This document shows, one piece after another, positions 15,634 to 36,557 of a stretch of DNA of 64,000 bases. A model generated the notes under the pieces. The model did no database searches. It was not told where the DNA came from and worked only from the letters and a program-made list of their open reading frames with translations. The stretch spans positions 1 through 64,000 of the IMG/VR virus record IMGVR_UViG_3300028196_000007; one strand, given 5' to 3'. Origin of the DNA: a virus. The translations under genes were made by a program, and so were the position numbers. Each line of letters begins with the position of its first letter. The first letter of the stretch is position 1.

Positions 15634-15634
<1 letters not shown>
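15374..15634 (-). CDS. Small zinc-ribbon protein
   Basis: CEKC ... CTDCGH. Confidence 0.7.
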
Positions 15635-17540
<1,906 letters not shown>

Positions 17541-17551
<11 letters not shown>

Positions 17552-18266
17552 GTTTATCCTCTTTTTCTAATTCATACTCTGATTTTGTACACACAACGCC
17601 TGTCTGCTCTTTTACAAGTTCAGGTGTTGTACATGATTGATTAAAACTTGCAAACTCTGTGTGTGATTTCCATCTTCCACATCCAGCAAATAAACAGCCA
17701 AACGCGTTAGATAAATAATCTGCTTTAGCATATTCACATTTTTTTGTAATGTCACACATAGGTTTAAAACCTTCAGCCAAACCTATACCTGCTTCTATCA
17801 TCTTTTCTCTTAATAGCCAGTGTAAACCAACAATAAATTCTTCTTCACAAAATTGAAGTCTTCTTGTCATTTGACCTCGAAGCGAACCTATATTTTGCTC
17901 TACAACATAACTACATTCTCTTGACATAAGATTTAGTGCAGACATTTCTACTTGAGAAAACATGTTTACTTCACGCTCTTCTCTAATCTCCTCAAGCTGT
18001 TCCAATGTTTCTATAACCTCTTGTTTAAATTTAGGGTCTTTCTGCATTGTATCCCATACTTGTGTATATACAACATAGTTTGGTTTTTCGCTTACCTTAT
18101 AGTCTTTAAATTTAATTCCAACTCTAGCTCTTGAATGCTGATCGTATTGACATACTGGTGTTCCTGTTACTTTATATGTTATCATTTGAGAATCAGGATT
18201 CCACATTAGTATTTCAACGTCTAGACATTCGATGCCTTTTTTAATTTTAATATTACTCATTTTCAA
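17541..18266 (-). CDS. Divergent ThyX-fold protein B
   Basis: TYKVTG..CQYDQHSRAR (cf. TFxIxGVSR..HQxxRHR); NIGSLRGQMTRR; Cys-rich PMC..KC tail. Confidence 0.55.
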
Positions 18267-19068
18267 ATAACTTTTTATCAGATTCTTTCAAATCCTCATA
18301 TTTAATATTTTTAATAAACTCTAATACATTTTCTGTATCTTCTGATATCACTCTTAAGTATTCACCTATTAAAGGGAATTTTTCTGTAACTGATTCCACA
18401 ACCTTTTTATATAATTCATTTAATGCCCAGTCTTTATTGTCCATTAGATTGAAAGTGCCTGACGCATTAAAACCTCTCATGCTCACAAGTGAAAGTAGAT
18501 TCTGTCCAAAATGATATGAGTGCTGGTATGATTGTGGTAAAAATGACCTTGCAGACTGCCAAGAAGCTTGGTCTGTATCTAAAGCTTTTGAATAAAGAGC
18601 CTTAAGTCTCTCCATAACTTTTATCTCCTTCTCCTCTAAAGAAGAAAGAGTTACGATGTCTACATCTGATTTATTGTTATCACGGCAGCCTATACTCATA
18701 AAGCTAGTAAATGGTGTTTGTGTGTGATAGTCGAATAGCCATCTTGGTACACCTCTTACACGAAATATAAACTGTATCATTTCTCTTGCTTGAGGCAGTG
18801 TGTTGTGAGTCATTACAGCCTTTACAACTTCAAGCTTTCCTTCTGGTGAAGTTAATGGCCATTTTCTTTTAAATTCATTATCACCCCATGTCGATGTGCT
18901 AGTAACAAACATAGACTTATAAGGATTTGACATGTGGTCTTCTAATGTGACCTCAACCTCATCTGATAATATTTTGAATTCTGTTTTTAGTAGTGGCTGT
19001 TCCTCAGGTAATGTTCCCATTACAATTCTCAGGTTTTCTACCACGTCGTAACTTAATTTATCTTGCAT
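18253..19068 (-). CDS. Divergent ThyX-fold protein A
   Basis: H...E..QFIFRVRGVPRW, AxWQSARSFLPQS, GQNLLSL, FP; RHR motif absent. Confidence 0.65.
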   Translation of the reverse strand: MQDKLSYDVVENLRIVMGTLPEEQPLLKTEFKILSDEVEVTLEDHMSNPYKSMFVTSTSTWGDNEFKRKWPLTSPEGKLEVVKAVMTHNTLPQAREMIQFIFRVRGVPRWLFDYHTQTPFTSFMSIGCRDNNKSDVDIVTLSSLEEKEIKVMERLKALYSKALDTDQASWQSARSFLPQSYQHSYHFGQNLLSLVSMRGFNASGTFNLMDNKDWALNELYKKVVESVTEKFPLIGEYLRVISEDTENVLEFIKNIKYEDLKESDKKLFENE

Positions 19069-19123
19069 TTCTATAACCTTTTTATTTAATATAAATATAA
19101 CAAAACTTTCCGATATATTAAAA

Positions 19124-22100
19124 TTATATCAACTTTTTTATCGAAGAGTTTTTGCTTTTTGTGAAACCAAATTTGTTTTTTGATGAAGGTATTAAAACAA
19201 ACTCACCTTCGTTAAGACCTGATATATCTCTAGTATTAAATATGGTTATAAACAACTGTTTGACGTCATCTTCTAACACAATTTTATAAAATTCCCTACC
19301 TGTCTTTTTAGATTTTTTAATAATTATTTTGTTTATAATACCATATAGTTGGAACTGACCTTTATCCAAGTCATCAGGTATTTGCTTAGGACTTGTTAAC
19401 TGTGCAATAATATCAGGTGCGTGGTCGTAGAAAAACTCCTTATATTTTGCAAAAGGGTGTTCGTTAAAATAAAAATCAAAGTATTTCTTTTCCCATTCAA
19501 ACTTTTGTGTTTTGTCCCAGTCTTTTTCACCTGTAGTTTCCTGTAAGATTTCTTGAATTATTGCATCGATTGTCTGCGACTTCTTTTTGTTTCTACAGGC
19601 ATTTACTATTTCCTCTAACACTCTAGAGTTTTTAAGTATAGAGTTAAAATAACCTAGTCTACAAAGAGGTTCGTATGTACGCTTTGTAACTTTTTTACTA
19701 AGTATAAATTCTATAAGTTCTTTAATTGTATTGATATCACTTTTTTTGATAGAGTTTATAAGTGCAGCATCTTTATCTGGTATACCTTTTACAAGGTTTA
19801 ATCCAAATTTTATAGAATCATTTTCATAGTCTATTTCAAAACTATTACCTGTCTGTCCTATTTCGAAGTCATTAAACTTTATACCTTTACTTTTTATCTG
19901 TTTAACAAACCAGCTTAACTCTGCATTTGTTGAATGGTTAAGAAGCGAAGCGTAATACTCTTTTGGAAAATGTACCTTTTGCCACATTGATATATAAGCG
20001 TTCATAGCATATGCTAGCGAGTGAGACTTATTAAATGAGTATTCTGAATATTTACCTAGTACGTCTAGTAACTCATCTATATCTCTATCCTTCATGCCAT
20101 TTGCTTTTGCGCCTTTTTTGAATCTATCAAGCATATCATAGAAATTACCTTTCTTTTCTTGATTACCTTTATGTAGTAATTTAAGAATTTTTCTACCACC
20201 ATCTGCTTCAGCAAGTGTAAAGCCACCAATTTTTTGTAGAATAAACATAATCTGCTCTTGAAATATTGGAACACCAAATGATTCTCCTAATATATCCCAC
20301 AGCAGTGGTGATTTTTCGTCTAGCAAAAATTTTGCCTCTTCCGGATTTTGTCGGTTTTTGATATACTCGTCAATTCCTCCGGCCTGAATTATTGCAGGTC
20401 TAAACATGGCATTGATGGATGATAAGTCAACAATGTTTTTAGGTTTTATTGTCCTAATTAAATTTATCATATTATCAGAGCCAAATTGAAATATGTCTTT
20501 ACAGTTACCTGTTTCGAACTCATCATAAACCATTTTGTCATCGAAGTCAGATTTTAGAATTCGTTGTTCTAAACCTTTTTCTCCATGCTTGCTTTCTATA
20601 AGTTTGAATGTATCATTTATTACTGATGCTGCTTTAAGACCAAGAATATCTAGCTTACAATAACCAAGTTCACTAACCTCTCGTTCATCACCACCTTCTT
20701 GTACACCAGTTACTGTTTCGCCTTTTAATCTTAACAAAGGTATTTCTGAACAGTCTAAATCTTTATTACTTACTAATATACCTGAAGCGTGTCTACCTGT
20801 TTGTCTTACCATACCTACCATTTTAGGTGCAACTTTCAAGAACAGTTCTTTGTTGTCCTTTATAAACGCCATTAAGTCTTTTTCACCTTTTTTCTGTGCA
20901 ATGCTAAAAGCGTTTTTCATTTCTATATCTATAGGTGAGTTTGGGTCATCGCTAAAATATCCTGTAAGTTTGTTTGATAATACAAAGTCAAGTTCATGTA
21001 TTCTACATAAATCCTTTACAGTTGTTTTAGCACCAAATTTTCCAAAGTTTGCAATGTGACATACACGTTCAGTACCAAACTTTTCTTTAAGATAACCTTC
21101 GCACAACTTTTGTGTATCGGAATCAATGTCCAAATCCACATCGGCAGGGTCAATTCTAGCAGGGTTTAAGAACCTTTCAAAAATTAAATTATGTCTTATC
21201 GGATCGATTTTTGTAATATCTAGTACAAATAGTACAAGTGAACCACCAGCAGAACCTCTACCAGCACCAGTTGCACCACCTACTTTGTATACAAAATTAT
21301 TTAATAAGTCATCTAGAATTAAAAAATAATCGATAAATCCTTTGTCTTTTATAATGTCTAATTCGTATTTAAGTCTGTCTGTATATCGTTTGTCGTTTTC
21401 AGGTAGTAAGCCATTACCTATTTTTTCAACCCATTTAACTTTTAGCTTATCCATAAATTCAGTTTCACTTTGCTTTTTGTCTTCATGATACTTAGGGAAG
21501 TTGTCAGGATATTTTGGCAATTCAATATTTACCTTGTCGTTTATTTCAAAAGTAGAATCTATTGCAAGTTCAAGAAAGTTTTTATCCATTCCATATTTTT
21601 CTGCTTCAGCATATATTTCATCTATCTCTTTAATATAAAGTGAGTGTACTGTATAAAACCAATCATCTGGAGTGTAAGACTGTACAGTTTCTCTTTGACG
21701 TATTACATATAAAAGATATTGAATGTACCAATCATCTTTATTTGCATAGTGATAATCAAGAGAGAACACAGGCTTTATTCCTGTTTTCTGATATACTTTA
21801 TGATAGAAATTATTACATTGCATTTGTATATCTAGATTGTTTAGCTGTATCTCCAAATAAAAATCATCACCAAACTTATCTCTATATTTTTTTATAAGTT
21901 CTAATGCTGCAACTTCATTTCCTGCAAGTATATATTGATTCCATTTTGATTGTAAACAACCTGTTGTAATTATATTATTCTCATCTAGTGTATTGTATAC
22001 TTTATCCATACTTGAAAGAGGCTTTCTATAAAACGTATCGAAACTTGCATTAGATACTTTTAATATATTCTTTACACCTTCATAGTTTTTTGAATAAACT

Positions 22101-22477
22101 AAAGTGTGATTGTTTGCAGCAGCAGTCTTATCAAGGTGTTCACCAGCATCACCAATTACATCTGTAGAACCTTTTTTAAGTTCAAGGAACTTTTCATTAT
22201 CTGAGTGGTATAAGTCATTTGTATATAGTTCACAACCTACGATTGGATTTATATTACTTTCCTTTGCATGTTTATAAAACTTGTAGAAAGACGACATATT
22301 TCCATGTTCGGTTAGTGATATACCAGGTGCACCAACCTCTTTTGCACGCGTCATTATATCTTCAATTTTTGTTACGCCATCCCCTTGTGAGTAAGTAGAA
22401 TGGCCATGCAAAGGAACGTAATTTGTAAATTTATTTCCTGTTTTGTATTTTAGTTTTAAGTCACACTTTTGACACAT
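19124..22477 (-). CDS. dnaE: DNA polymerase III alpha subunit (family C)
   Basis: PHP motifs HxHSxYS, EHG, GCE, DYHY; GRGSAGGS, FERFLNPAR, DVDLD, KLDILGL, FNKSH. Confidence 0.95.
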   Translation of the reverse strand: MCQKCDLKLKYKTGNKFTNYVPLHGHSTYSQGDGVTKIEDIMTRAKEVGAPGISLTEHGNMSSFYKFYKHAKESNINPIVGCELYTNDLYHSDNEKFLELKKGSTDVIGDAGEHLDKTAAANNHTLVYSKNYEGVKNILKVSNASFDTFYRKPLSSMDKVYNTLDENNIITTGCLQSKWNQYILAGNEVAALELIKKYRDKFGDDFYLEIQLNNLDIQMQCNNFYHKVYQKTGIKPVFSLDYHYANKDDWYIQYLLYVIRQRETVQSYTPDDWFYTVHSLYIKEIDEIYAEAEKYGMDKNFLELAIDSTFEINDKVNIELPKYPDNFPKYHEDKKQSETEFMDKLKVKWVEKIGNGLLPENDKRYTDRLKYELDIIKDKGFIDYFLILDDLLNNFVYKVGGATGAGRGSAGGSLVLFVLDITKIDPIRHNLIFERFLNPARIDPADVDLDIDSDTQKLCEGYLKEKFGTERVCHIANFGKFGAKTTVKDLCRIHELDFVLSNKLTGYFSDDPNSPIDIEMKNAFSIAQKKGEKDLMAFIKDNKELFLKVAPKMVGMVRQTGRHASGILVSNKDLDCSEIPLLRLKGETVTGVQEGGDEREVSELGYCKLDILGLKAASVINDTFKLIESKHGEKGLEQRILKSDFDDKMVYDEFETGNCKDIFQFGSDNMINLIRTIKPKNIVDLSSINAMFRPAIIQAGGIDEYIKNRQNPEEAKFLLDEKSPLLWDILGESFGVPIFQEQIMFILQKIGGFTLAEADGGRKILKLLHKGNQEKKGNFYDMLDRFKKGAKANGMKDRDIDELLDVLGKYSEYSFNKSHSLAYAMNAYISMWQKVHFPKEYYASLLNHSTNAELSWFVKQIKSKGIKFNDFEIGQTGNSFEIDYENDSIKFGLNLVKGIPDKDAALINSIKKSDINTIKELIEFILSKKVTKRTYEPLCRLGYFNSILKNSRVLEEIVNACRNKKKSQTIDAIIQEILQETTGEKDWDKTQKFEWEKKYFDFYFNEHPFAKYKEFFYDHAPDIIAQLTSPKQIPDDLDKGQFQLYGIINKIIIKKSKKTGREFYKIVLEDDVKQLFITIFNTRDISGLNEGEFVLIPSSKNKFGFTKSKNSSIKKLI

Positions 22478-22561
22478 AGATTACCTTTTTTATATTATAC
22501 TATAATATAACAAATTTATGGGAGATATGAAAGGATTTGAGGAAGTATTTTTTGAAAGTTA

Positions 22562-23053
22562 TTAACAATAAGTCCACGGCTTATTTCCATTCTCCATAAA
22601 CCTATGAAGAGATGTTATCTTAACATATATTTTTCCAGGCCTATATTTTGGCCAACAAGCTATAAGTGCAGACATAACCATCATATAAGTCTGGTTGTCA
22701 TAGCAGAAATTGTTATCGAAGTTTTGACTTCTTACAAAAACATGCAGGTCTATCTTTCCATCTCTTGCTATTGCCTGTATTGTAGAAAGACATGCTGCTA
22801 AATCTGGATTATCTTGATAAGCTTTATGAAGTACACACTGTCTAGACTCTATGCCTTTTGTTTCGCATATCTGAAGTATGTCTTCTATAATCTCGTTTCT
22901 TTCAATCTCATCGCCTTCTAAAGCAGGAGGTATTTTTTTATCCATAAAGTCTGAATCGACCTCTACCTCGTAATTAAAATTGTATACTTCTCTATACGTG
23001 CCACTGTCTTGTTTGCTTAACAGGCTTTCTATTTTCTGTGCTATTTTCTTCAT
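22562..23053 (-). CDS. Minimal thymidylate-synthase-fold enzyme, dCMP-modifying type
   Basis: LAACLSTIQ (catalytic Cys), L...RSQN.......D, SLH; Asp at the Asn177-equivalent position. Confidence 0.72.
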   Translation of the reverse strand: MKKIAQKIESLLSKQDSGTYREVYNFNYEVEVDSDFMDKKIPPALEGDEIERNEIIEDILQICETKGIESRQCVLHKAYQDNPDLAACLSTIQAIARDGKIDLHVFVRSQNFDNNFCYDNQTYMMVMSALIACWPKYRPGKIYVKITSLHRFMENGNKPWTYC

Positions 23054-24056
23054 AATGCTTTGCTATCGATAAATATGTTTTTGTTATACCTTCTGCTGAA
23101 TTCATTGCATTTGCAGACAGATTGTAATGTTGATATAATTTATAAAAGTTTTCTGATTTCCCATTGTGTCTTGCAAGATAGTCACCTTCTGGAATTAAAT
23201 TTATGTGTTCTGTTAAATCGTTGCATTGTGTAATTTCTTGAATAAGGTATAAGTAATTTTCAAATGGCATTGGCTTATCTTTACTTATAATAAAGTCTTT
23301 ACCCCAACCATTATCCATCATAAGTATAGTCAAAAACATATCAGCGAAATATTCATATCTCATATAGTCTTTTTCTATTGAAGGGTCAAGTAATACATCA
23401 AGTTTGCCATTTTTGTTAAGTGGAGACAATGTATAAGGTATGTTGTTCTTACTACAATATACTTTTTCTGTTATCTTTCTTATCATAGACGAGTTATCGA
23501 ATGGTGCGTCACCATAAATAAACACAGGCTTTATTACCATCATTTTTTCGAAGTCCATAGCCTGTTTTACAGCAAGCTCACCTGAATACTTTGAAAGACC
23601 ATATAGTGTTTTTGGGTCTATAGGTGCTGTTTCATTAAACTCTCCATTGTTCTTCATGTATTCATCAGGATTGAATACGGCTGTAGTAGAAAAGTATATC
23701 ATTTTACAACCAACACTGCTTGCTATGTTAATAAGATTTTGAGTACTTATAATATTTGAGTTAACAGCTTCGTATGAAAAGTCATCGCACTTATCTGTAT
23801 TCACATAAGCAGCAGTGTGAATTATAATATCGTCTTCAGTAAGTCTTGATGCTACCTTGTCTAGTACATCAGTATCTGTAACATCTACCTCTTTTGATTT
23901 CACAAGCTTTCCGTTTAAATAACTAAAGTCATTTGTATATTCTGCTAAATCAGAATTGTCCATTACCTCAAATCTTTCTGTCCCGCTTTCTTCCAACGCT
24001 TTAATTATAGAGGTTGCTAGCATTCCACTTTCACCTGTTATAAATAATTTTCTCAT
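22992..24056 (-). CDS. RmlD-like NAD(P)-dependent NDP-sugar reductase/epimerase (extended SDR)
   Basis: ITGxxGML, IHTAAYVNTDKC, YFST..VF, YGLSK..GE. Confidence 0.82.
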   Translation of the reverse strand: MRKLFITGESGMLATSIIKALEESGTERFEVMDNSDLAEYTNDFSYLNGKLVKSKEVDVTDTDVLDKVASRLTEDDIIIHTAAYVNTDKCDDFSYEAVNSNIISTQNLINIASSVGCKMIYFSTTAVFNPDEYMKNNGEFNETAPIDPKTLYGLSKYSGELAVKQAMDFEKMMVIKPVFIYGDAPFDNSSMIRKITEKVYCSKNNIPYTLSPLNKNGKLDVLLDPSIEKDYMRYEYFADMFLTILMMDNGWGKDFIISKDKPMPFENYLYLIQEITQCNDLTEHINLIPEGDYLARHNGKSENFYKLYQHYNLSANAMNSAEGITKTYLSIAKHYEENSTENRKPVKQTRQWHV

Positions 24057-24475
24057 AATTTCTCCTGTATTTTTTCTGCTGATTGTGACACTGTATCTTT
24101 TGTCGTATCTATTCTTTTTATATCCATTCCATAGAAATTTTCTGCAATTTCAAGTACATGGTAAAACACTCTTCTGTGTTCTTTCCAATCTCTTATATCC
24201 AAATCTTTTTCATCGTGCTTTACAAATCTTTCTTTAACAAGCTCAAAAGAACAGTCGATAAAATAAAACTCTTCACCTCTACTGTAAGCTTCTTTCCACA
24301 ATGAAAACCACTTGTCTTCATCTATGTCTCTATTATATAATCTAGAGTACACTATTTGTGATAAAAAAGACCTGACATAAACTAGCGCGTTTCCTTCTGC
24401 GTTGCTTACAACCTGTCTTCTTATAGAATCTTTTCCTGTTTTATCAGGTCCATCTATGTGTATTATTTTTGCCAT
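24053..24475 (-). CDS. dNMP/thymidylate kinase-like protein
   Basis: IDGPDKTGKD P-loop, RSFLSQIVY, IDT. Confidence 0.78.
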   Translation of the reverse strand: MAKIIHIDGPDKTGKDSIRRQVVSNAEGNALVYVRSFLSQIVYSRLYNRDIDEDKWFSLWKEAYSRGEEFYFIDCSFELVKERFVKHDEKDLDIRDWKEHRRVFYHVLEIAENFYGMDIKRIDTTKDTVSQSAEKIQEKL

Positions 24476-24843
24476 ATTTTCATTTTAGTTGATATATAAG
24501 TTAGCTGTTCTGTTTCTACCTTTCCAAATATAAGTACTTTGTTATATACAAGTATATCGAATTCATTTTCTCTATGTAAACCAAATACATCATCTGCAAC
24601 TTTAGTAGGTTCGAAATCTCTGTTTAAATCTTGTAGAGGTATGCAGCATAAGAATTCTCGTTCGTCATCTTTTTCTAATGAATATCCCCAATTGTCTCCT
24701 ATAAAAGACTTTGTTTTTATTCTATCCTCTACCAAAGATTCCCAAAACTTAATTTCTTGTTTTGCAGCTGGATTCTCGTAGAAGCAATAAGTTAACTTAA
24801 CTTCCTGTACTACCAAATCCTCCATCTCCTCTACTTGTATCAC
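24463..24843 (-). CDS. Hypothetical protein (start uncertain)
   Basis: ORF filling the gap between dUTPase and kinase. Confidence 0.55.
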   Translation of the reverse strand: MIQVEEMEDLVVQEVKLTYCFYENPAAKQEIKFWESLVEDRIKTKSFIGDNWGYSLEKDDEREFLCCIPLQDLNRDFEPTKVADDVFGLHRENEFDILVYNKVLIFGKVETEQLTYISTKMKIWQK

Positions 24844-25258
24844 TTAACTCATCAACTTCTTTAAATTCAAAATTAGGCACAGGCATGATAATAATCTGAC
24901 CTACTCTATCACCTGGTGAATATCTTGAAATGTCTGTTGAACAACCTGATTTTTTAAATCTTAACTTTACAGGGCCTCTGTAACCTGAGTCAACTACTCC
25001 GACACAGTTTGCTAGCATTAGATCTGTTTTTGATACAGAGCTTCGCGGGAATAGATAACCTACATATCCTTCAGGTATTTCCATAGCCAAGCCTGTATCG
25101 TATTCGATATACTTAACTTCTTTTGATGTATAACCTTCTTTATCGTCACTATATTTTATCTTCATTGACACTGATGTTAAATCCATACCTGCATCGCCTT
25201 GCTTTGCATATTTTGGTATTACCGCTGTTGGGTCTAATTTTTTTATATTAATCTTCAT
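24797..25258 (-). CDS. dut: Trimeric dUTPase
   Basis: AGMDL, PRSS, GVVDSGYRG, GDRVGQ, RGDGGFGSTG. Confidence 0.95.
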   Translation of the reverse strand: MKINIKKLDPTAVIPKYAKQGDAGMDLTSVSMKIKYSDDKEGYTSKEVKYIEYDTGLAMEIPEGYVGYLFPRSSVSKTDLMLANCVGVVDSGYRGPVKLRFKKSGCSTDISRYSPGDRVGQIIIMPVPNFEFKEVDELSDTSRGDGGFGSTGS

Positions 25259-26186
25259 TGTGAATAACCTCTATTATATTTCCGTTAATTGTTTTAATTC
25301 CTTCGTTTAGTTTTCTATCAAGTGTTTTCTGTGAGTATATACCTAAGTTCTTTCTTAGGAACACTTTGAATCCACTGTCATGAAGCTTGTTTGCATTTTG
25401 TATATCATCATCTATACAGAAAGCTACTTTATCTGTATCAAAGTTATTGATAATATATTTTTCTTTTTCTTCATCAAATACAATAGCATCATAACAAATA
25501 TTGTTATCAGCCAACCACTTTATTGTATCTGAATATATTCTAAAGTATTTCTTGTATGGTCTTGCTGTAAGCAATACTACATTATATTCTTCACATGTCT
25601 TCTTCATAAAAGATTCTACACCTGACAATACTTTAAGTTTAGCTTTAATACCGCAAGTTCTATATTCAGACTTAATTTTGTATTGCTCTTTTTTGTCAAC
25701 CTGACTTTTGAATTCAGCAAGAGATTTATACCCTGCCCATTCTAAAAAACCACCTGGCCAATCGGCAAGTACTCCATCGATATCAATAAAAGCTATTTGC
25801 TTATCTGAAGCCTTAATTCTATCCATTACTTCTTCTTGATTGAACTTTGCTTCAACAACTTTTGATTTATCTATAAATTTTTCATACAAATCATCTACAC
25901 CAAAACCATTTAATTGTATAATACCAAATAAGTATTTTAGTACATCAACACATTCTTCTAATACATTGTCGTTAATATCTTCTGTATTTTTAGAAGTGTG
26001 CATTTTCCAATCTATCTCATCGAGTACTTCATATACCTCTTTAGACAGCGCTAGAACGTACTCCTTGTTCCATTTAATCTTAAGTTCTTTATCCTCCATC
26101 ACCTCATTTAACGATAAACCTTGTTTTTCGAAAAATTTATTAGTAAATTCTTTTTGTATCTTAAATACTTCTTTTAATCTATCCAT
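25248..26186 (-). CDS. Fusion: all-alpha NTP pyrophosphatase (dCTPase/dUTPase, MazG-like) plus HAD 5'(3')-deoxyribonucleotidase
   Basis: ExxEVLDEIDWK..EECVD; IDIDGVLAD, LTAR, IDDD. Confidence 0.82.
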   Translation of the reverse strand: MDRLKEVFKIQKEFTNKFFEKQGLSLNEVMEDKELKIKWNKEYVLALSKEVYEVLDEIDWKMHTSKNTEDINDNVLEECVDVLKYLFGIIQLNGFGVDDLYEKFIDKSKVVEAKFNQEEVMDRIKASDKQIAFIDIDGVLADWPGGFLEWAGYKSLAEFKSQVDKKEQYKIKSEYRTCGIKAKLKVLSGVESFMKKTCEEYNVVLLTARPYKKYFRIYSDTIKWLADNNICYDAIVFDEEKEKYIINNFDTDKVAFCIDDDIQNANKLHDSGFKVFLRKNLGIYSQKTLDRKLNEGIKTINGNIIEVIHNED

Positions 26187-27118
26187 TCTTTCACCCTGTC
26201 TAATACTTCGTTAGCTTTTATTTTATGATTCCATTCTGCAAATCTACCTAACAAAGTGATTCCTTTTATTTCATTGATTTTTTGGCTTTTCTCTATCTGT
26301 ATAGGTAAATCCTCAAACTTCATTTCTATTTTATTTCCTTCGATGCTGTCACCTTCTATAGGCTTAACAGATTCGTATACAATATAATCTTTAAAATATG
26401 TACATCTTGTCCAGTCTGCATGTATTGAATATATGTAGTCATATGTTAATGAAGGATGCTTACTATCCATAGCCTCAGGTACTGTAAATCCATAACTACA
26501 TTTATAAAAAGATTTTTTGCTTGTTGAAAAATCAAATCCTAGTTTTGTACATTCGTTATCAACATCTGCGCATATCTTTCTTAATATGTTTATATTTAAA
26601 GTATTTATTATATTACCATATTCTAATGTTGAGCCATTTGCTAACTCTAATTGGCTCAAGGTTGTGTCAATTGATTTTACAGATGTTTTTATTAACTGAC
26701 CTCTTTCTTCTATAATACTAAGTAGTCTCGTAAATATTTCTTTATAGCTATCTTCACCCAACTCATCAACTTCGCAATGCATGATTTCTGTCTTACCTTC
26801 TGACAAATGACTGCCTTCGCCTTCATTGCCTCTTGTTCTCATGCTGTATTTCTTTTTAAAGTTTTCGTCAGGTGAATCATACACACCTTCTTTTTCATGA
26901 TAACCTATAACACACTTTTCAATTTTTAATTCTAAATCATTTGCAACTTCCTTTACAAACCATTTCATGTTTGGATTTGACTGCAAAAGTCTAGGGCCTG
27001 GTATAAACGGCATGTTTAATTGACCTAAAGGTTTTTCGTCTATAACCTTATAGTCTTTATTAAAATATGCAGCTATCAAACCTGCTGGTCCTGCTCCTAA
27101 TATGTAATTTTGTTTCAT
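26174..27118 (-). CDS. FAD-dependent oxidoreductase, UDP-galactopyranose-mutase/PPO-like
   Basis: ILGAGPAGL, GPR, C-terminal LLGRFAEW. Confidence 0.72.
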   Translation of the reverse strand: MKQNYILGAGPAGLIAAYFNKDYKVIDEKPLGQLNMPFIPGPRLLQSNPNMKWFVKEVANDLELKIEKCVIGYHEKEGVYDSPDENFKKKYSMRTRGNEGEGSHLSEGKTEIMHCEVDELGEDSYKEIFTRLLSIIEERGQLIKTSVKSIDTTLSQLELANGSTLEYGNIINTLNINILRKICADVDNECTKLGFDFSTSKKSFYKCSYGFTVPEAMDSKHPSLTYDYIYSIHADWTRCTYFKDYIVYESVKPIEGDSIEGNKIEMKFEDLPIQIEKSQKINEIKGITLLGRFAEWNHKIKANEVLDRVKEWID

Positions 27119-27204
27119 CTGTAACCTTTTTATTTATATATAATATAACAAATTTTTACGACATATAATACATTTTATAGTATAATTGTTGTATCCAATC
27201 TTCT

Positions 27205-29064
27205 CTAATTGATTTCACAACTACCTCCTGCACATGCTAGCTCACCAGATAGATTTGTATTATCTTCAATTTCTATAACATTTGATAAATCTACATCTGT
27301 TAGTACCTTCATCATCTCGTTGTATTTTTCTTTAGTAATATCTTCGAATGGAGCTTGAGTATATGTTCCGCCATCATAAGGTAGAACTGATAGGCCATTG
27401 TAGTATTTTCTATTAAGCCACATCCATTCTCCTGCTAAATCCCATTCGTTTTCTTTCAAGCTAATCGTTGCAGAAACGTTATGTGTGTTACTGCCATTTC
27501 TATGTCCTGGTACTACCCATTCAGTTGCAACTTTCTTAACTCTTTCAAGTGTGTTAAATGGAGATTCTGTTCTTAATATCGAACCTTCAGGTGATTTTTG
27601 AGGTACTTGAATAACTGCAGTATCATGTGGTCTAAAATATTCATCTTCAACTAACTCTGGATGGTTTGTTTTTAGATGTTGGTATATTGACTCGTTTTTG
27701 CCAACTCGAATTCTACGTACATAGTATTCATTGTGCCATGCATGAATACCTGAACTTGTACCTAAAACTAAACTTGTAGTACCTGCTGGCTTTACAGTCG
27801 TTGTTCTAGCTGATTTGTTTATTCCGATAATTTTAGCAACTCGAGTATTCTCTCTCTTAACTAAACTTGCTGCTTTTTTCATATCATATCCAAGTACTAC
27901 ACCTGAACCAATACCTGTCATACTTACACCAATCAACGCATCCTTTTCTGTTGTTTCTCTCCAAACATCTCGCAAATAATGAAAATCTGTATACCCTGCC
28001 TGTAAAGTTCCAACAAACGCAGCAGCCTTAACTCTTTCGTTTAAATCTTCTTGTGATTCTATATTAGAAACATTTACTTCACAAAGATTACAGAACTGAT
28101 TTGGTCTTAATGCTATTTCACAACAAGGATTGGTTCCCCAATCTTTATCGTTATTAAAGTATATACCTGGTTCACCAGCACCTGAAAGCTCTACTCTTTT
28201 CCATAGGTCCATAAAGAATTCTTGAGTTATTTTATGTCTCATTAGACAAGCTGAATTGTTCGCTCTACCTCTTTGTGGATTTGTTTCCCACCAGTTACCG
28301 CTTTTACAACTAATCATTTCGTCATCATCAGCATTGAATAAACTAATAAGTGCGGCTCTTCTAATACCGCCAGCCAATACAGCATCAGCAATGTGGCAAA
28401 TAATATCATGAGCTTCCAATGTAGTTAGTCTTTCTCCAGCCTGCTTAGTCTCCAATATTCCTGTAAGTTTAAGAATACATTCTTTTAATGGCTGAGGTCC
28501 TGGAGCTTTACCACCAGAAGTAACTAGCATAGAACCTTTAGGTCTTACATCTGAATAATCAAATTCTATATTACTTCCACCACCATTCATATATGATTTC
28601 ATAAGAACTTTGATAGCGTCAGCCCAACCTTCAATAGAATCACCTACTAAAAATCTTCTCTTTCTTTTCGGCCAAGGTTTTTGTATTACAGGTAGCTTGT
28701 TTACGTGATGTCTTTGTACTGAGTATCCAACTCCAGTACCACCTAGTAATAAAAACATAGTTTCACTAAAAGCGTCAACGCAATCGATTGGAAGATACGC
28801 ACAGTTGTAAATTCTGTTTGGAGATATCTCAATAGGTTTTCCACCAAATTGTAAACTACGCATTGACGGTAGTATTTTTTTATCATACACTAATTTATAT
28901 TTTTCTTCAATCTCATCTTTTAACATCGGGAATTTCTTTTGGTGCATTTTTTTATTACGAGTCACCAACTCTTCCCACGTCTCTCTTCTGTTTAAATCTG
29001 TCGCATACTTTGCGTATTTCATATAAACTGTAATTTCCGATAATATTTGATTTGATATTTCCAT
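27205..29064 (-). CDS. nrdJ: Class II (B12-dependent, monomeric RTPR-type) ribonucleotide reductase
   Basis: RETWEE, YNC, GGTGVG, RRAALI, TNPCCEI, VKPAGT, C-terminal CAGGSC. Confidence 0.92.
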   Translation of the reverse strand: MEISNQILSEITVYMKYAKYATDLNRRETWEELVTRNKKMHQKKFPMLKDEIEEKYKLVYDKKILPSMRSLQFGGKPIEISPNRIYNCAYLPIDCVDAFSETMFLLLGGTGVGYSVQRHHVNKLPVIQKPWPKRKRRFLVGDSIEGWADAIKVLMKSYMNGGGSNIEFDYSDVRPKGSMLVTSGGKAPGPQPLKECILKLTGILETKQAGERLTTLEAHDIICHIADAVLAGGIRRAALISLFNADDDEMISCKSGNWWETNPQRGRANNSACLMRHKITQEFFMDLWKRVELSGAGEPGIYFNNDKDWGTNPCCEIALRPNQFCNLCEVNVSNIESQEDLNERVKAAAFVGTLQAGYTDFHYLRDVWRETTEKDALIGVSMTGIGSGVVLGYDMKKAASLVKRENTRVAKIIGINKSARTTTVKPAGTTSLVLGTSSGIHAWHNEYYVRRIRVGKNESIYQHLKTNHPELVEDEYFRPHDTAVIQVPQKSPEGSILRTESPFNTLERVKKVATEWVVPGHRNGSNTHNVSATISLKENEWDLAGEWMWLNRKYYNGLSVLPYDGGTYTQAPFEDITKEKYNEMMKVLTDVDLSNVIEIEDNTNLSGELACAGGSCEIN

Positions 29065-31587: not shown

Positions 31588-32022
31588 TTATTTTATTTCT
31601 ATAAACTTGGCTTTTGCCGTTTCGAATTTTGGAACTGTGATTTGTAATAAACCATTTTTCATTTCTGCATCCAGACTTGTTAAGTCAAAGTCCGGACTGA
31701 CCTTCCATCCCATATCAAAACTACGTCTTGCAATTCCTCTATGGATATAAGTTGGTGCTTCTTTATTTGATGGGTTTGATTCGACAGTAGGTTTTTTGTA
31801 GGTAACCTTTAAAGTGTTTCCTTCTACTAAAACGTGTATGTCGTCTTTTTCCAATCCAACACATGCGATATCAAAGCATAGTACTTCGTTGTCAACAAAT
31901 ACGTCAACCGGATAATCAGGCTTTGTATCCATTGCTGAACCAAATCCTACATTTGTGTCGAAAAAATTTTTGAATAATAAATCGGTAGAGAAGAGTCTCT
32001 CACCTAATAAGTGTCTTGTCAT
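31588..32022 (-). CDS. Small heat-shock protein (Hsp20/IbpA-like)
   Basis: YPVD, YIHRGIARRSF, AxMKNGLLxI. Confidence 0.9.
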   Translation of the reverse strand: MTRHLLGERLFSTDLLFKNFFDTNVGFGSAMDTKPDYPVDVFVDNEVLCFDIACVGLEKDDIHVLVEGNTLKVTYKKPTVESNPSNKEAPTYIHRGIARRSFDMGWKVSPDFDLTSLDAEMKNGLLQITVPKFETAKAKFIEIK

Positions 32023-32444: not shown

Positions 32445-32574
32445 ATAATTTCTTTTTTTAGTTTAAAAATAAAGGCTCTTGGTTGGTTAAATAAATCTTT
32501 ACCATAGTGAGGATTTTTAACTCTTAACATTCTGCACCACGTGAAGGTGGCCTTTGTTAGCAGAACTAGGTGCT

Positions 32575-32783: not shown

Positions 32784-33323
32784 TTATTTTCTTATATATA
32801 ATTTTTGATTTCTAATATACATTTTACCTGTAGGTATTTCTGTTAACTCTCTACCTAGCATATCGTATATTTTATTACTCATACAACAACTACATCCCAT
32901 TTGACATTCATATTCTAATATTGCAGTTGGTACTCCAATGTTGCTCATTAACATCCAAGCTTGTCCGTCCCATACTTGATTGAAACAACAACTCATTGTG
33001 TCAACATAACCTAATGAATCTGTTAAAGTATAAGATATACACGTTGTTATTGTATCATAAGGCATTCCTGTGGTTGGATTGTAATTGTATACTAAGTGTG
33101 TACAAGGACCACTAAAACAACTGTCTTGACCCAACATTGTTTGACCACCATAAGTTACAGCATACAAAGGTGCCATAGTAGGCAAACTATTTCCAGTTAC
33201 TGGTATTGCTATTTCTAATTGATATTGTGAGCCTATTGTGTAAGTCATGTTTGAATCACATAAGGTTTGTGCTTGTGTTTGTAGTCCAAGCGAAACTAAT
33301 AATACTGCTAATAATCTTTTCAT
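32784..33323 (-). CDS. Secreted protein with T9SS-type C-terminal sorting-like domain
   Basis: Signal peptide ending AQ; C-terminal KIYDMLGREL...G.MYI..K. Confidence 0.65.
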   Translation of the reverse strand: MKRLLAVLLVSLGLQTQAQTLCDSNMTYTIGSQYQLEIAIPVTGNSLPTMAPLYAVTYGGQTMLGQDSCFSGPCTHLVYNYNPTTGMPYDTITTCISYTLTDSLGYVDTMSCCFNQVWDGQAWMLMSNIGVPTAILEYECQMGCSCCMSNKIYDMLGRELTEIPTGKMYIRNQKLYIRK

Positions 33324-33367
33324 ATTTTATTCTTTTATTCTTTTTAAATTAATTTAATATAATAATA

Positions 33368-33587
33368 TCTATGCGGTTGGATTCGAACCAACAGTTTTTC
33401 AAGTACAAATTTGTAGGCTAAAAACTTAAAAAAAGCCTTATAGTTCCTGTACTCTTGAGGAACTCGGGGTCGTTGTTAGCGCCACCATAAACCTTAGTAG
33501 CTACAAGTAGCTTATAAAGGTTGCGTATCTCCAAGCTAATATATTCATGTTTTATATACATGTCAATTAGCATTCCGCCACGCATAG
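33368..33587 (-). ncRNA. Expanded tRNA-like RNA (220 nt)
   Basis: Acceptor CUAUGCG/CGCAUAG, U8-G9, D stem GCG/CGC with GG, T arm GUUGG-UUCGAAU-CCAAC; hairpin insertions in D loop, anticodon loop and variable region. Confidence 0.75.
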
Positions 33588-33593
33588 TTATTA

Positions 33594-34721
33594 TTATCCT
33601 ATTGGCACATCATCATTTCCGATTTCAATATCATCGATACCTAAATCATCTGTTTTGTATGCCATAATCAATGTTTCGCAAATCTTGTTATATATTCTCT
33701 CTTTCCTTTCGGGGTCAGAAAGTACTAACTTTTCAAAGTCTTTTGATAAAAACTTTATTTCTTTGCCTGTTACATCATCAGTATAAGTATACCAAGAACC
33801 GCCTTGTTTAATAAGGCTGTAGTCTTTTAACACCTGAAGCCAACCACCAAAGTCATCGATGCCTGATTCGAAATAAATATTAAATTCTGCTTCTCGTAAA
33901 GGTGGTCCCATTCTGTTCTTGACAACCTTTGCCTTTGTTTTAATACCTATAACTTGTTCTTTACCGTTAACCTTAGCTTTAATCTGTCCTGCTGCTTTCA
34001 ATCTTAATCTACAACTAGCATGAAACTGGATTGCTTTACCGCCTGATGTAGTATATTTGTCACCAAACATAACACCTAGCTTTTCTCTTAGCTGATTTGT
34101 AAATATCAAACATACTCTTTCTCTACCAATTAACTGAGTAATTTTTCTCATACCTTTTGACAACACAATTGCTTTTGACGTAGCCCAACCTTCTTTGTCA
34201 TAGTCTTGAGCCTGTTCAATTTTTGTTGTTGCTGCAGCTACTGAGTCTACTGCAATTGATACCAATCTATTTTTGTCTGATTCTTTTACTTTTAAGATTA
34301 TATTTTCAATAACCTCAAATATATCTTCTACAGCTTCGAGTTGAATATACAACATCTTAGAAATGTCCATTCCTATAGCAGTTAAAAACTCCTCATTCAT
34401 GGCATTTTCTGTATCTATGTATACTGCAAGGCCTCCTTGCTTTTGCGTGTTAGCGAGTAGATGAGCTGCAATGAGTGATTTACCAGAAGCTTCCATTCCA
34501 GTAATTTCTGTAATTCTACCTACCGGTAAACCACCATTAGCTCTATTTGAAATAGCTAGGTCAAGTAAAGATGAACCTGTACTTATCCATTCAGTTAAGT
34601 CAGTTGGTGTTTCATCTGCACCATCTAGAAAGTATGCAACTTTCATTCCTTTAAACTGTTTGTTTAATGAGTCAGCTAATACGCTGGCTAATTCATCTCG
34701 TTTTGTCTTATCCTTTGCCAT
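33594..34721 (-). CDS. recA: RecA/UvsX recombinase
   Basis: ISTGS..LD, GLPVGRI, GMEASGKS, DSVAA, FTNQLR, GGKAI.F, KNR. Confidence 0.93.
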   Translation of the reverse strand: MAKDKTKRDELASVLADSLNKQFKGMKVAYFLDGADETPTDLTEWISTGSSLLDLAISNRANGGLPVGRITEITGMEASGKSLIAAHLLANTQKQGGLAVYIDTENAMNEEFLTAIGMDISKMLYIQLEAVEDIFEVIENIILKVKESDKNRLVSIAVDSVAAATTKIEQAQDYDKEGWATSKAIVLSKGMRKITQLIGRERVCLIFTNQLREKLGVMFGDKYTTSGGKAIQFHASCRLRLKAAGQIKAKVNGKEQVIGIKTKAKVVKNRMGPPLREAEFNIYFESGIDDFGGWLQVLKDYSLIKQGGSWYTYTDDVTGKEIKFLSKDFEKLVLSDPERKERIYNKICETLIMAYKTDDLGIDDIEIGNDDVPIG

Positions 34722-34733
34722 GTTAATTTCCTC

Positions 34734-35486
34734 TTACTCGTTAAATAAATCATCAAATGCTGATTCAACATCTTTTGTTGATGATACGCCTGTTGCTGCA
34801 GCTGTTGATGTTTGAGCTGGAGCTGCTTCACCACCATCTGGGTTCAACCATTCTTCCAATACAGCTTTTAAGTCATCGTATGAATTTTTTCTAAAAATTT
34901 CAAAGATTTCTTTTTGTCCACTAACAATTTTATCTGCAATGTTTGCATCTGTTGTTGCTGGTGTCTGATTTGGTTTTACACGGATTGCAGTTTTAGGATA
35001 GTTCCCTACTCCTTCTGCTGGTGTGAATTCTACAGAGATATCTCTACCAGATTTTACATCTGTGATATCACCATAGTCTGGGTCTGAAATAAATCCTAGC
35101 AATTCAGTATATACCTGCTTACCAAATCCCCAAAATTTAACACCATCAGATTCTTCTCCTCTAACAATAACTGGCACATAACATCTCATTTTCGGTGATA
35201 GTTTTCTTGCCAATTTAAAGTCATCAGATTTACCTGTTGCTCTAAGCTTTTGTGCAAACTCTTCTACTGGGTCTGCTTCGCCATAAGTTACTGGTGATAG
35301 GTAATTCTTTTTACCTAAGTCATAGTGAAAATACATTTCAATAAACGGATTTTCTTTGTTGTGTTGGTAAGGTACAATTCTTACTTGGTTCTTACCTGGT
35401 TCAGGTTTCCACAAGTTGTCTTGTCTTCCTGTTTGTGTTTGTAAGTTATTTAACTTACGTCGGATTGCTTCTAAATCAATAGCCAT
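34734..35486 (-). CDS. T4 gp32-like single-stranded DNA-binding protein
   Basis: LWKP, VRIVP, V.FWGFGK, D.DYGDITD..GRD, acidic tail FDDLF. Confidence 0.8.
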   Translation of the reverse strand: MAIDLEAIRRKLNNLQTQTGRQDNLWKPEPGKNQVRIVPYQHNKENPFIEMYFHYDLGKKNYLSPVTYGEADPVEEFAQKLRATGKSDDFKLARKLSPKMRCYVPVIVRGEESDGVKFWGFGKQVYTELLGFISDPDYGDITDVKSGRDISVEFTPAEGVGNYPKTAIRVKPNQTPATTDANIADKIVSGQKEIFEIFRKNSYDDLKAVLEEWLNPDGGEAAPAQTSTAAATGVSSTKDVESAFDDLFNE

Positions 35487-35540
35487 TTTTTTCTCCTGTT
35501 TTTAATTATTATTTAGTTAATATAACAAAAATATTCCACA

Positions 35541-36557
35541 TTATAAAACTTTATGTAAACTATTTTTGTATTTTTTTAAGTAGCCTATTACAGCTATTTC
35601 CTTATGCTTTGCTTCGACAACCACATCGATGTCTAGACCATAGTCGTTGATTTCGTCTACAACTAAGTCTGAATGTGCTTGTACTTTTATTTTTTGAGAT
35701 TCCTTGTGTAGCTTTTCCATAGTAGGATATTCGGATAACTTTTCCATTGGTATATTACTGTTTTTAAGAAAAGTTTCAACTATGAGTCCTTGTTCTCGCC
35801 TACGTGATTCGGAATAATGAGTACAAGGTTTTACATCACCCCATGTAGATGCTGCTAGTTTTAGTGCTTGTTCTTCGGTAAGACCACCTGTACAGAATTT
35901 GTGGTGGTGATAATCGAATACAATAGGTATACCTGTATTTTGGAATACACCTGTATATAAATCTTGAACTGAATACATGCTAGCTTTGTCGTCGTTTTCC
36001 ACTGTTAACCTGGATTTTGCTGATTCTGATAATTTGTCGAAATTATTGCAAAACCTAACAAGAGCTGTTTCCTTGTTGCCATAAGCACCGCCAACATGTA
36101 TATTGATTTTTGCCATACGTGTTCGTGGTAAACCCATAAGGTCCATAATTTGAGCAGACTTATTAAGTTCGTTCCAAGCACCTTCTACTGTTTTTTGAGT
36201 TGGTGAAGCTAGCACTGTAAACTGGCCTGGGTGGAATGACAACCTTTGGCCATAACCTTGAGCCAAGTCGCCAGCTTGCTTTAATAGCACACATAATTCA
36301 TCGTAGCCAGGCAGGTCTGTAAATTCATATTCAGACATCCACGGATATATGTCACTAGACATACGGAATACTTTTATTCCATTGTCCTCATTCCATTGAA
36401 TAATCTTGATTAAGTCTTTGGTATTTGCTATACACAATTCTGACACATAGTCTAGACCTTTTGCATCGAATGTTCGCCTAATCATTGAGCGGCCTGTGTA
36501 TATACCTTGTTTTCGTAAGTGCATGTTTATACATGCGTATCCTAATTGCTTTGCCAT
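35541..36557 (-). CDS. uvsE: UV damage endonuclease
   Basis: LGYACIN, FRMSS, RLSFHPGQF, IHVGG, ENDD, FDYHHH, HYS, HSD, EAKxKE. Confidence 0.92.
   Translation of the reverse strand: MAKQLGYACINMHLRKQGIYTGRSMIRRTFDAKGLDYVSELCIANTKDLIKIIQWNEDNGIKVFRMSSDIYPWMSEYEFTDLPGYDELCVLLKQAGDLAQGYGQRLSFHPGQFTVLASPTQKTVEGAWNELNKSAQIMDLMGLPRTRMAKINIHVGGAYGNKETALVRFCNNFDKLSESAKSRLTVENDDKASMYSVQDLYTGVFQNTGIPIVFDYHHHKFCTGGLTEEQALKLAASTWGDVKPCTHYSESRRREQGLIVETFLKNSNIPMEKLSEYPTMEKLHKESQKIKVQAHSDLVVDEINDYGLDIDVVVEAKHKEIAVIGYLKKYKNSLHKVL

Follow-up and report, generated by a model that had tools for sequence, protein, structure and literature searches.

Only a handful of non-coding RNA families are, to our knowledge, known to mimic tRNA: the transfer-messenger RNA (tmRNA), YrlA, the viral 3' tRNA-like structures, and mascRNA. 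Here, we describe a tRNA-shaped RNA of 220 nt encoded on the minus strand (33587-33368) of a stretch of 64,000 nucleotides of viral DNA, corresponding to positions 1 to 64,000 of the IMG/VR record IMGVR_UViG_3300028196_000007 and referred to below as the window. The RNA lies behind recA, whose stop codon is found 6 nt upstream on the same strand, and it belongs to a real, conserved RNA gene family of uncultured marine phages. Whereas tRNA-derived mimic RNAs are a kind already known, the phage family with its double pseudoknot is itself new. A full-text literature search returned no description of RNAs of this kind, and the family is not described in the main text of a 2023 catalogue of 10,006 candidate viral RNAs, whose supplementary tables might list it (PMC10690425).

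The phage RNA shares with class II tRNA-Leu (RF00005) the 7-bp acceptor stem, U8, the 3-bp D stem, G13, A14, A15, G18G19, U48, and a T stem with a UUCGAAU loop, and its extra arm leaves the core at the place of the long variable arm; the likeness of the D arm to that of tRNA-Leu is by reading. Contrary to tRNA-Leu, the phage RNA has no 7-nt anticodon loop, carries a hairpin of about 36 nt in the D loop, and has the variable arm replaced by some 95 nt with two pseudoknots; members of the family are 194-271 nt long. The tmRNA (ssrA, including the reduced forms of phages and organelles) also combines a tRNA-like acceptor-T module with pseudoknots and has no anticodon. However, the tRNA-like domain of tmRNA has neither the full D stem nor the arm at the anticodon position that are present here, and its pseudoknots are located in a ring closed by helix P2 instead of at the variable-arm position, whereas the phage RNA is devoid of a G3-U70 pair (present in 1 of 42 members), a conserved tag frame, and a resume codon.

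Other tRNA-shaped RNAs are embedded in longer transcripts. The t-elements of plant mitochondria and the mascRNA of MALAT1 are tRNA-shaped and cut by RNase P, and they resemble the phage RNA in being located at the 3' end of a longer transcript. Nevertheless, they measure about 60 nt or less and have no added domains, whereas the phage RNA has around 150 nt of extra conserved structure. Phage T4 produces the stable RNAs species 1 and 2 (rnaC and rnaD), which are encoded in its tRNA cluster and processed together with the tRNAs; the likeness to the RNA described here, by description only, is that of phage-encoded stable RNAs adjoining tRNA genes. YrlA and other bacterial Y RNAs, also present in phages, do not decode and mimic three parts of a tRNA, namely its acceptor stem, D arm, and T arm (Chen et al. 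2014, PMC4201824). In the same account, the tRNA-like domain of Mycobacterium smegmatis YrlA, with an acceptor stem of 7 bp, is a substrate of RNase P RNA in vitro and gains CCA in vivo; in the YrlA family, the acceptor-like helix is a closed stem-loop and the RNA ends in a Ro-binding stem (PMC4201824). Even though the phage RNA likewise imitates these three parts of a tRNA without decoding, it ends at the acceptor stem, neither a TROVE/Rsr gene in the 86-kb record nor an Rfam match to YrlA was found, and a YrlA identity was rejected for this topology and because no TROVE gene was detected in this record, which holds about half a genome. By reading, the strand order of the phage RNA (a b a' c d c' b' d') also differs from that of the fold of the hepatitis delta virus (HDV) ribozymes.

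A covarying tRNA-like core with two interlocked pseudoknots

All the features listed in a preliminary description of the locus, which was made from the sequence alone, were found in place by direct reading (Table 1). These include the 7-bp acceptor stem with an A discriminator and no encoded CCA, the Leu-type start with a 3-bp D stem and GG, and the canonical T arm; the core runs from U8 through the Leu-like D-arm start, G13, A14, and A15 to a GG at the place of G18G19. The proposed hairpin inserted in the D loop is also present and covaries in relatives. Regarding the hairpin at the anticodon position, its presence was upheld, and the innermost pairing suggested for it (AGCUAC/GUAGCU) was not, since this would leave a loop of 2 nt, the actual cap being a 5-bp stem with a CUUG loop. 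The variable region, of about 95 nt between that arm and the T arm, consists of a hairpin and a domain of about 75 nt containing two interlocked pseudoknots. The stems AGUUCCU/AGGAACU and AGGCU/AGCCU of the preliminary description correspond to stem S1 and hairpin H of this domain, and the pseudoknot AGUAC/GUACU, which had been listed as possible, is PKa. PKb is a second pseudoknot, additional to that earlier structure. The whole 220 nt fold with an energy of -54.8 kcal/mol (z -2.68), and 1 of 200 shuffles was equally good.

A covariation analysis on relatives, of the kind that had been proposed as a check, was carried out on alignment A1, which comprises 42 distinct sequences chosen by a 3' pattern plus a loose 5' motif and aligned with MAFFT, the alignment being crude in the D-loop insert; L082, L144, and L191 were dropped from it as plain non-members. 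In A1, 85.5% of the cells of the structure are paired, compared with 66.9% in column shuffles, and 543 cells have changed on both sides, compared with 204. The covariation score of 0.493 was reached by none of 500 shuffles, which gave 0.182, and it falls to 0.131 or less when the partners are slid by 1-3 columns. At the level of single helices, pairing amounts to 93.9% in the acceptor helix (two-sided changes at 6 of 7 pairs), 99.2% in the D stem (3 of 3), 100% in S1 (6 of 6), 80.8% in hairpin H (2 of 4), and 100% in the T stem (2 of 5). In the D-loop insert, the outer and inner stems are 76.3% and 83.3% paired in the crude alignment, and all of their pairs change two-sidedly. PKa, 100% paired with all 5 pairs changed on both sides, is thereby confirmed. 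The view that the added stems are maintained by selection and are not decaying is thus supported, covariation being seen in the acceptor, D, S1, and T helices, in the D-loop insert, and in the pseudoknots.

PKb is 99.3% paired in A1, a set that was not selected for it, with two-sided changes at 3 of 7 pairs, and its co-varying variants include AGUUUUU/AAAAACU, AGUACUU/AAGUACU, AGUGUUU/AAACACU, and AGUUUCU/AGAAACU. A second alignment restricted to the 3' domain (A2, 46 rows) gives the same picture; since 44 of its 46 rows had been pre-selected for PKb complementarity, the support for this pseudoknot was taken from A1. In a similar way, the bases fixed by the search pattern (AAGT, ACTG, and the T loop) do not count as independent evidence in the rows found with the pattern, whereas they do in the 30 loci found through RecA. 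U8, G13, A14, A15, G18, and G19 are invariant in the 42 sequences, and the strands joining the helices of the double pseudoknot are nearly so, with a U-rich loop facing an A-U helix. G-U or U-G pairs occupy 40 cells of the acceptor, D, S1, PKa, PKb, and T helices in A1; because these would be A-C mismatches on the opposite strand, the structure is that of the coding-strand RNA. As a separate observation, the loop of the D-loop insert (33546-33562) could pair with the U-rich 5' part of the loop of hairpin H (33427-33433, minus strand), as UAAAA/UUUUA in the window and CCAA/UUGG in L033. This contact is only an idea, given that other variants do not follow it and that runs of A and U pair trivially.

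The arm at the anticodon position behaves differently from the rest. In A1, where it could not be aligned, 43% of its cells are paired. When the segments of the 44 full-length members are folded separately, 42 close into an end-paired stem, and the other two had been mis-extracted by the script. The caps are variable, with four members having 5 bp plus a tetraloop and others being two-tiered or branched. A 5-bp anticodon stem with a 7-nt loop, U33, and an anticodon is not found in the family, and no cap is conserved. Hence, the RNA cannot decode, in agreement with its earlier characterization as a non-decoding, tRNA-derived RNA.

The suggestion of a tmRNA-like RNA, made for the variable region because it reads GANNDPEF, did not survive. 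The 'tag' stretch is the 5' half of a covarying hairpin in which 6 of 6 pairs change two-sidedly; it is 71.7% paired in one fixed register, and the register differs between subfamilies. Among 42 members, pair 3:70 is A-U in 19, G-C in 17, G-U in 1, U-A in 1, and something else in 4. With no conserved reading frame and no tmRNA called by ARAGORN in the window or in 47 related loci, a tmRNA was rejected.

Table 1. Positions of the tRNA-shaped RNA, its parts, and its flanks in the window.
Feature	Positions	Strand	Description
Whole RNA	33368-33587	-	Acceptor 5' end to discriminator, by direct reading; 3' domain scores 128.8 bits with covariance model R1
Acceptor stem, 5' strand	33581-33587	-	7 of 7 pairs with 33369-33375
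Acceptor stem, 3' strand	33369-33375	-	Unpaired A at 33368; CCA not encoded
D arm	33523-33578	-	Stem 33576-33578 with 33523-33525; G18G19 at 33531-33532
D-loop insert hairpin	33535-33571	-	Two-tier, about 36 nt: outer stem of 6 bp, inner stem of 4 bp, A/U-rich loop
Arm at anticodon position	33491-33521	-	5-bp stem, internal loop, 5-bp stem with CUUG loop; anticodon loop absent
Variable-region hairpin ('tag' stretch)	33466-33486	-	Conserved GUARC-type loop
Stem S1	33442-33464	-	33458-33464 with 33442-33448; loop contains PKa 5' strand (33449-33453)
Hairpin H	33416-33437	-	33434-33437 with 33416-33419; U-rich loop, whose 3' part (33420-33426) is the PKb 5' strand
Pseudoknot PKa, 3' strand	33402-33406	-	Partner 33449-33453; about 45 nt downstream of the S1 loop
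Pseudoknot PKb, 3' strand	33393-33399	-	Partner 33420-33426; abuts the T stem
T arm	33376-33392	-	5-bp stem, UUCGAAU loop
5' flank	33588-33597	-	Pairs with 33358-33367, extending the closing stem; overlaps recA stop codons
3' flank	33358-33367	-	Partner of 33588-33597; based on inverted repeat I2 and flank-duplex energies in the family
recA	33594-34721	-	Directly upstream; Pfam RecA, 198 bits, E 2e-58

Recognition by existing tools and spread of the family

The RNA escapes the programs and databases normally used for such genes. ARAGORN called no tRNA or tmRNA gene in the window, and in the 47 related loci it called only the neighbouring ordinary tRNAs. Rfam 15 at the gathering score gave no match in the window and, in 17 related loci, nothing except ordinary tRNAs. 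When E values up to 10 were admitted around the element, only the T arm was matched, against RF00005, with 13.8 bits (gathering score 29), and no ribozyme or riboswitch family matched in 33200-33750. The lack of a full match that had been anticipated for tRNAscan-SE, ARAGORN, and Rfam is therefore borne out with ARAGORN and Rfam 15, and of the findings that would have spoken against a genuine new RNA the opposite was seen: no Rfam match, together with both covariation and cover in RNA libraries.

Relatives were collected in two ways. Querying viral contigs with the RecA protein yielded 244 candidate stretches, of which 243 were confirmed. The best 80 loci were retained, and in many of these the same RNA is seen downstream of recA with obvious compensatory changes. 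A pattern for the 3' domain matched 45 viral-contig stretches, at least 109 stretches of metagenome contigs, and at least 120 stretches of bacterial and archaeal genomes. Membership was scored with R1, a covariance model of the 3' domain only (46 sequences, 129 positions). With it, 30 of the best 80 recA loci hold members, at 86-131 bits, and no member was found among the remaining loci of these 80, of which L016 could not be scored because it ends 137 nt after recA. Members account for 27 of the 109 metagenome matches listed and for none of the 120 matches listed from bacterial genomes, and none was found in 150 further Bacteroidota genomes sampled. Reading and regular-expression filters divided the 45 viral stretches into 37 members, most of them on contigs already obtained through RecA, and 8 ordinary tRNAs or unrelated sequences.

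One locus from a metagenome-assembled genome of Chitinophagaceae (L306, 7004-7125, plus strand) reached 35.7 bits with R1 and was classed as a non-member, since its would-be pseudoknot strands are not complementary. It has a T arm, an acceptor-like 3' strand, and an intrinsic terminator, and neither ARAGORN nor Rfam matched it.

The 44 distinct full-length members measure 194-271 nt, with a median of 233, and fall by sequence into three subfamilies: the one behind recA to which the RNA of the window belongs, and two behind a gene for an ATP-dependent DNA ligase, identified with Pfam. The element is the sole copy found by R1 in the window and in the 86-kb record, and the copy number was one in each of the six records of 41-116 kb that were searched whole. 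A blastn search of three members against 50,697 GenBank phage records gave only T-arm-sized or chance matches, and the closest cultured RecA is that of Microcystis phage Mel-JY01, at 54%. The carriers are uncultured marine myophages with a T4-type capsid; the source record, an 86-kb IMG/VR fragment that is about 50% complete, encodes a Gp23-type capsid protein, a tail sheath, and a T4-type baseplate protein.

Cover in RNA libraries and genomic neighbourhood

The stretch or part of it is contained in 20 listed sequencing runs, 17 of them on record as RNA. Logan contigs from four seawater metatranscriptome runs of four studies cover the element, colinear with recA. The longest, of 2382 nt (33267-35648), runs unbroken through the start of the next gene, the RNA, recA, and gp32, and the others span 33374-33862 (run X2), 33372-34191 (run X3), and 33577-35493 (run X4). 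The contigs of X2 and X3 stop 4-6 nt before the predicted 3' end, with the stop of that from X2 joined to Illumina adapter letters, and the recA contig of X4 stops 10 nt inside the 5' end; these stops near the RNA ends are a hint and no more. Regarding the transcript check that had been proposed, the locus is indeed covered in RNA libraries, whereas contigs cannot show a discrete, CCA-tailed species of 220 nt.

In the window, a gp32-like gene and UvdE are found upstream of recA, and small genes, a 5'-3' exonuclease, and DnaB downstream of the RNA. A blastx search upstream of every pattern match placed RecA just upstream in 64 loci and DNA ligase in 22, always on the same strand, many of these loci being one contig fetched twice. 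All true members with upstream sequence lie behind one of these two genes, and the 75 loci with no match are non-members plus three 5'-truncated members. On the downstream side, an ordinary tRNA gene may follow: tRNA-Glu lies about 10 nt or less behind the RNA in L030, L033, and L034 and some 245 nt away in L042, and tRNA-Ala begins no further than about 10 nt behind it in L134, L167, and L176. The downstream genes otherwise vary between members, so the RNA is not a leader for one particular gene.

Several further elements were observed in this region. A candidate HDV-like self-cleaving ribozyme lies at 32471-32566 on the minus strand, where 32515-32566 match the Rfam model HDV-F-prausnitzii with 23 bits, compared with a gathering score of 44, and E 0.11. 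A 7-bp P1 whose first pair is G-U, a P2 (AAAAGG/CCUUUU in relatives), and a P3 (CCAC/GUGG) can be made out by eye, and P1 covaries between the window and relatives. The motif accounts for 36 coding-strand hits in the loci examined. It is located 250-1100 nt downstream of the RNA in L001, L002, L007, L009, L014, L022, L026, L147, and others, and directly after recA in L074, L075, L077, and L079, which do not have the tRNA-shaped RNA; in L035, it also follows recA, and in L075, a tRNA-Ala lies behind it. HDV-like 'theta' ribozymes linked to tRNAs are known from gut phages (PMC10879173). We considered whether the tRNA-like RNA has taken the place of the HDV-like ribozyme behind recA and dropped this idea, because members keep the ribozyme motif 250-1100 nt downstream. 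A third conserved, structured-looking sequence occupies the slot 3' of recA in L064, L066, L076, and L078; it contains GCUGAWACCAAUGU, ends in a terminator-like hairpin, and has no Rfam match at the gathering score.

A perfect inverted repeat of 18 nt (31564-31581/32055-32072) brackets the Hsp20 gene at 31588-32022 and would close its transcript unit in a panhandle, which resembles how the flanks of the tRNA-like RNA pair. At 33340-33367 on the minus strand, and at the corresponding position in L001-L026, an A/T-rich TTRTTATATTA-type motif precedes the start codon of the next gene by about 25-35 nt; in relatives, it is also found before the exonuclease gene. This motif is promoter-like for a phage by eye and overlaps the 3' strand of the closing helix. 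In turn, a sigma-70-like promoter within the D-loop hairpin (33566-33538, minus strand; TTGACA, 17 nt, TATATT; 11 of 12 positions) was discarded as probably due to chance, its hexamers being present only in close relatives. Further along the minus strand, 15634-29064 contains a mix that is unusual for a phage with a Gp23-type capsid: a DnaE-type polymerase III alpha subunit, a fragment of a family A polymerase, a GroEL-like chaperonin, ThyX-like genes, a class II ribonucleotide reductase, several sugar-nucleotide enzymes, and glycosyltransferases.

Trans-acting mimic, processing signal, and other readings

For the function of this RNA, we tentatively favour a stable, non-decoding tRNA mimic that is freed by tRNA-processing enzymes and acts in trans, because all the contacts of the tRNA core are kept, tRNA genes adjoin it in some members, and its conservation exceeds the needs of a processing signal. 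The RNA would be transcribed together with the upstream gene. Host RNase P might then cut at the 5' end of the acceptor stem and, after 3' trimming and perhaps CCA addition, a discrete RNA would result, much as presumably happens with the ordinary tRNA genes some 10 nt behind it in certain members. The predicted shape would offer RNase P what it requires of a substrate, namely the 7-bp acceptor stem and the T arm. Once freed, the RNA may occupy a host or phage factor that reads tRNA by shape. The interacting surface would consist of the conserved elbow, the D-loop hairpin, and the pseudoknot domain rather than the anticodon end or the 3' end. Constraint is observed in the elbow, the loop of the D-loop hairpin, the loop of the variable hairpin, and the pseudoknot joints, whereas the anticodon and 3' ends vary freely.

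A number of observations weigh against such a trans-acting RNA. The metatranscriptome contigs show neither the ends of the RNA nor its levels, and carry-over of DNA into RNA libraries is possible. Every assessable member lies directly 3' of an open reading frame (ORF) on the same strand, as expected of a cis element. In most members, the flanks continue the acceptor helix unbroken, an arrangement expected to impede RNase P and in keeping with an embedded element bounded by a closing stem. The acceptor end is unlike that of a typical bacterial tRNA, since the 1:72 pair is U-A in 22, C-G in 9, A-U in 7, and G-C in only 2 of the 44 members and the discriminator is variable. The 5' domain alone folds no better than shuffles (median z -0.53, with 5 of 44 below -2). 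Regarding possible partners, no TROVE protein (PF05731) was found in the 86-kb record, which covers about half a genome, even though control genomes matched, and nothing related to RNA appeared among the 38 window proteins scanned against Pfam.

The main rival, which we consider somewhat less likely, is a cis-acting role. Here, the RNA would be a form of punctuation, its tRNA shape serving only to bring in RNase P, with RNase III possibly acting on the long closing stem, so that the polycistronic message is cut behind recA or the ligase gene. The cut would set the 3' end and the stability of the upstream mRNA, as with t-elements or MALAT1-mascRNA, and the RNA released in this way would be without a function. 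This role agrees with the position of the element, just behind the end of RecA or DNA ligase on the same strand, and with the closing helix, which overlaps the stop codons and runs on from the acceptor stem. In the window, flanks and acceptor stem together form the inverted repeat I2, of 17 nt and 94% complementary, which overlaps three in-frame recA stop codons. Among the 44 members, the cognate flank duplex has a median energy of -7.2 kcal/mol, compared with -4.0 for non-cognate and -3.4 for shuffled flanks, and it is weak (-4.1 kcal/mol or weaker) in 13, including the loci in which tRNA-Glu follows the RNA (L030, L033, L034, and L042). The HDV-like motif provides another RNA-cutting element in the same region of these phages, and the Hsp20 inverted repeat makes transcript-closing stems seem common in the window.

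However, an acceptor-T minihelix suffices for RNase P, and the family keeps under strong constraint a D arm, a D-loop hairpin, a second hairpin with a conserved loop, and two pseudoknots. Some 100 nt of conserved loops and pseudoknots in excess of the enzyme's needs speak against a processing signal alone. The part played by the 7-bp acceptor stem with RNase P is as cited in the YrlA account (PMC4201824). In addition, members still have the HDV-like motif, which makes the tRNA-like RNA an addition to the locus and not a ribozyme substitute, and 50 of the best 80 related recA loci do without the RNA.

Within the trans-acting reading, a more specific and rather doubtful proposal is that of a phage counter-measure, in which an abundant, anticodon-less tRNA look-alike would use its elbow, its acceptor stack, and its extra domain of class II type to soak up or mislead a host factor that reads tRNAs by shape. 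Such a factor might be a defence nuclease cutting variable loops or acceptor stems, or a toxin modifying the 3' ends of tRNAs. If this were true, the pool of real tRNAs would be protected during infection, and the RNA would represent an RNA-only anti-defence gene of new design.

It seems improbable that the RNA is aminoacylated, that is, receives CCA, is charged, most likely by leucyl-tRNA synthetase (LeuRS), and then either donates its amino acid or acts as a factor directed to the ribosome, somewhat like a tmRNA. Bacterial LeuRS is not known to read the anticodon, the copy in the window has a Leu-like D arm, A15, U48, and an A discriminator, and the acceptor-T stack and elbow are intact. Nonetheless, the discriminator is A in only 15 of the 44 members (C in 14, U in 11, and G in 4), and this lack of conservation disfavours one dedicated synthetase. 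CCA is encoded in none of them, the flanks usually continue the acceptor helix, and the G3-U70 pair, the tag frame, and the tmRNA call are lacking, as mentioned above.

We consider it slightly more improbable still that the pseudoknot domain is the active part, either as a ligand aptamer or as a new self-cleaving or other ribozyme, with the tRNA body as its scaffold. The interlocked double pseudoknot, with its near-invariant joining strands and U-rich loop opposite an A-U helix, would suit such an activity, and self-cleaving ribozyme candidates are present in the same genomes. Yet no Rfam ribozyme or riboswitch matches even at E values up to 10, the strand order is not that of HDV, and the differing downstream genes make a shared regulatory target unlikely. 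Finally, a decaying pseudo-tRNA, a chance fold, or a protein-coding stretch is hardly credible: even though an ATG-started ORF of 55 aa (33418-33585) overlaps the element, compensatory changes run through 42-46 distinct sequences, length differences between members are not in frame, and the longest sense ORF varies from 17 to 102 aa (median 41) among the 44 members, none with a conserved frame, for which reason coding was rejected.

The phage RNA would add to the few known tRNA mimics a large, well-defined family whose conserved surface is the elbow plus a double pseudoknot and not the anticodon or the 3' end. That surface points to a reader of tRNA shape in marine bacteria or their phages, and the covariation provides a sufficient basis for solving the structure and for in vitro tests with synthetic RNA, even in the absence of a cultured phage that carries it. 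Moreover, in one of the sea's most abundant groups of viruses, a class of phage RNA genes goes unnoticed by tRNA finders and Rfam.

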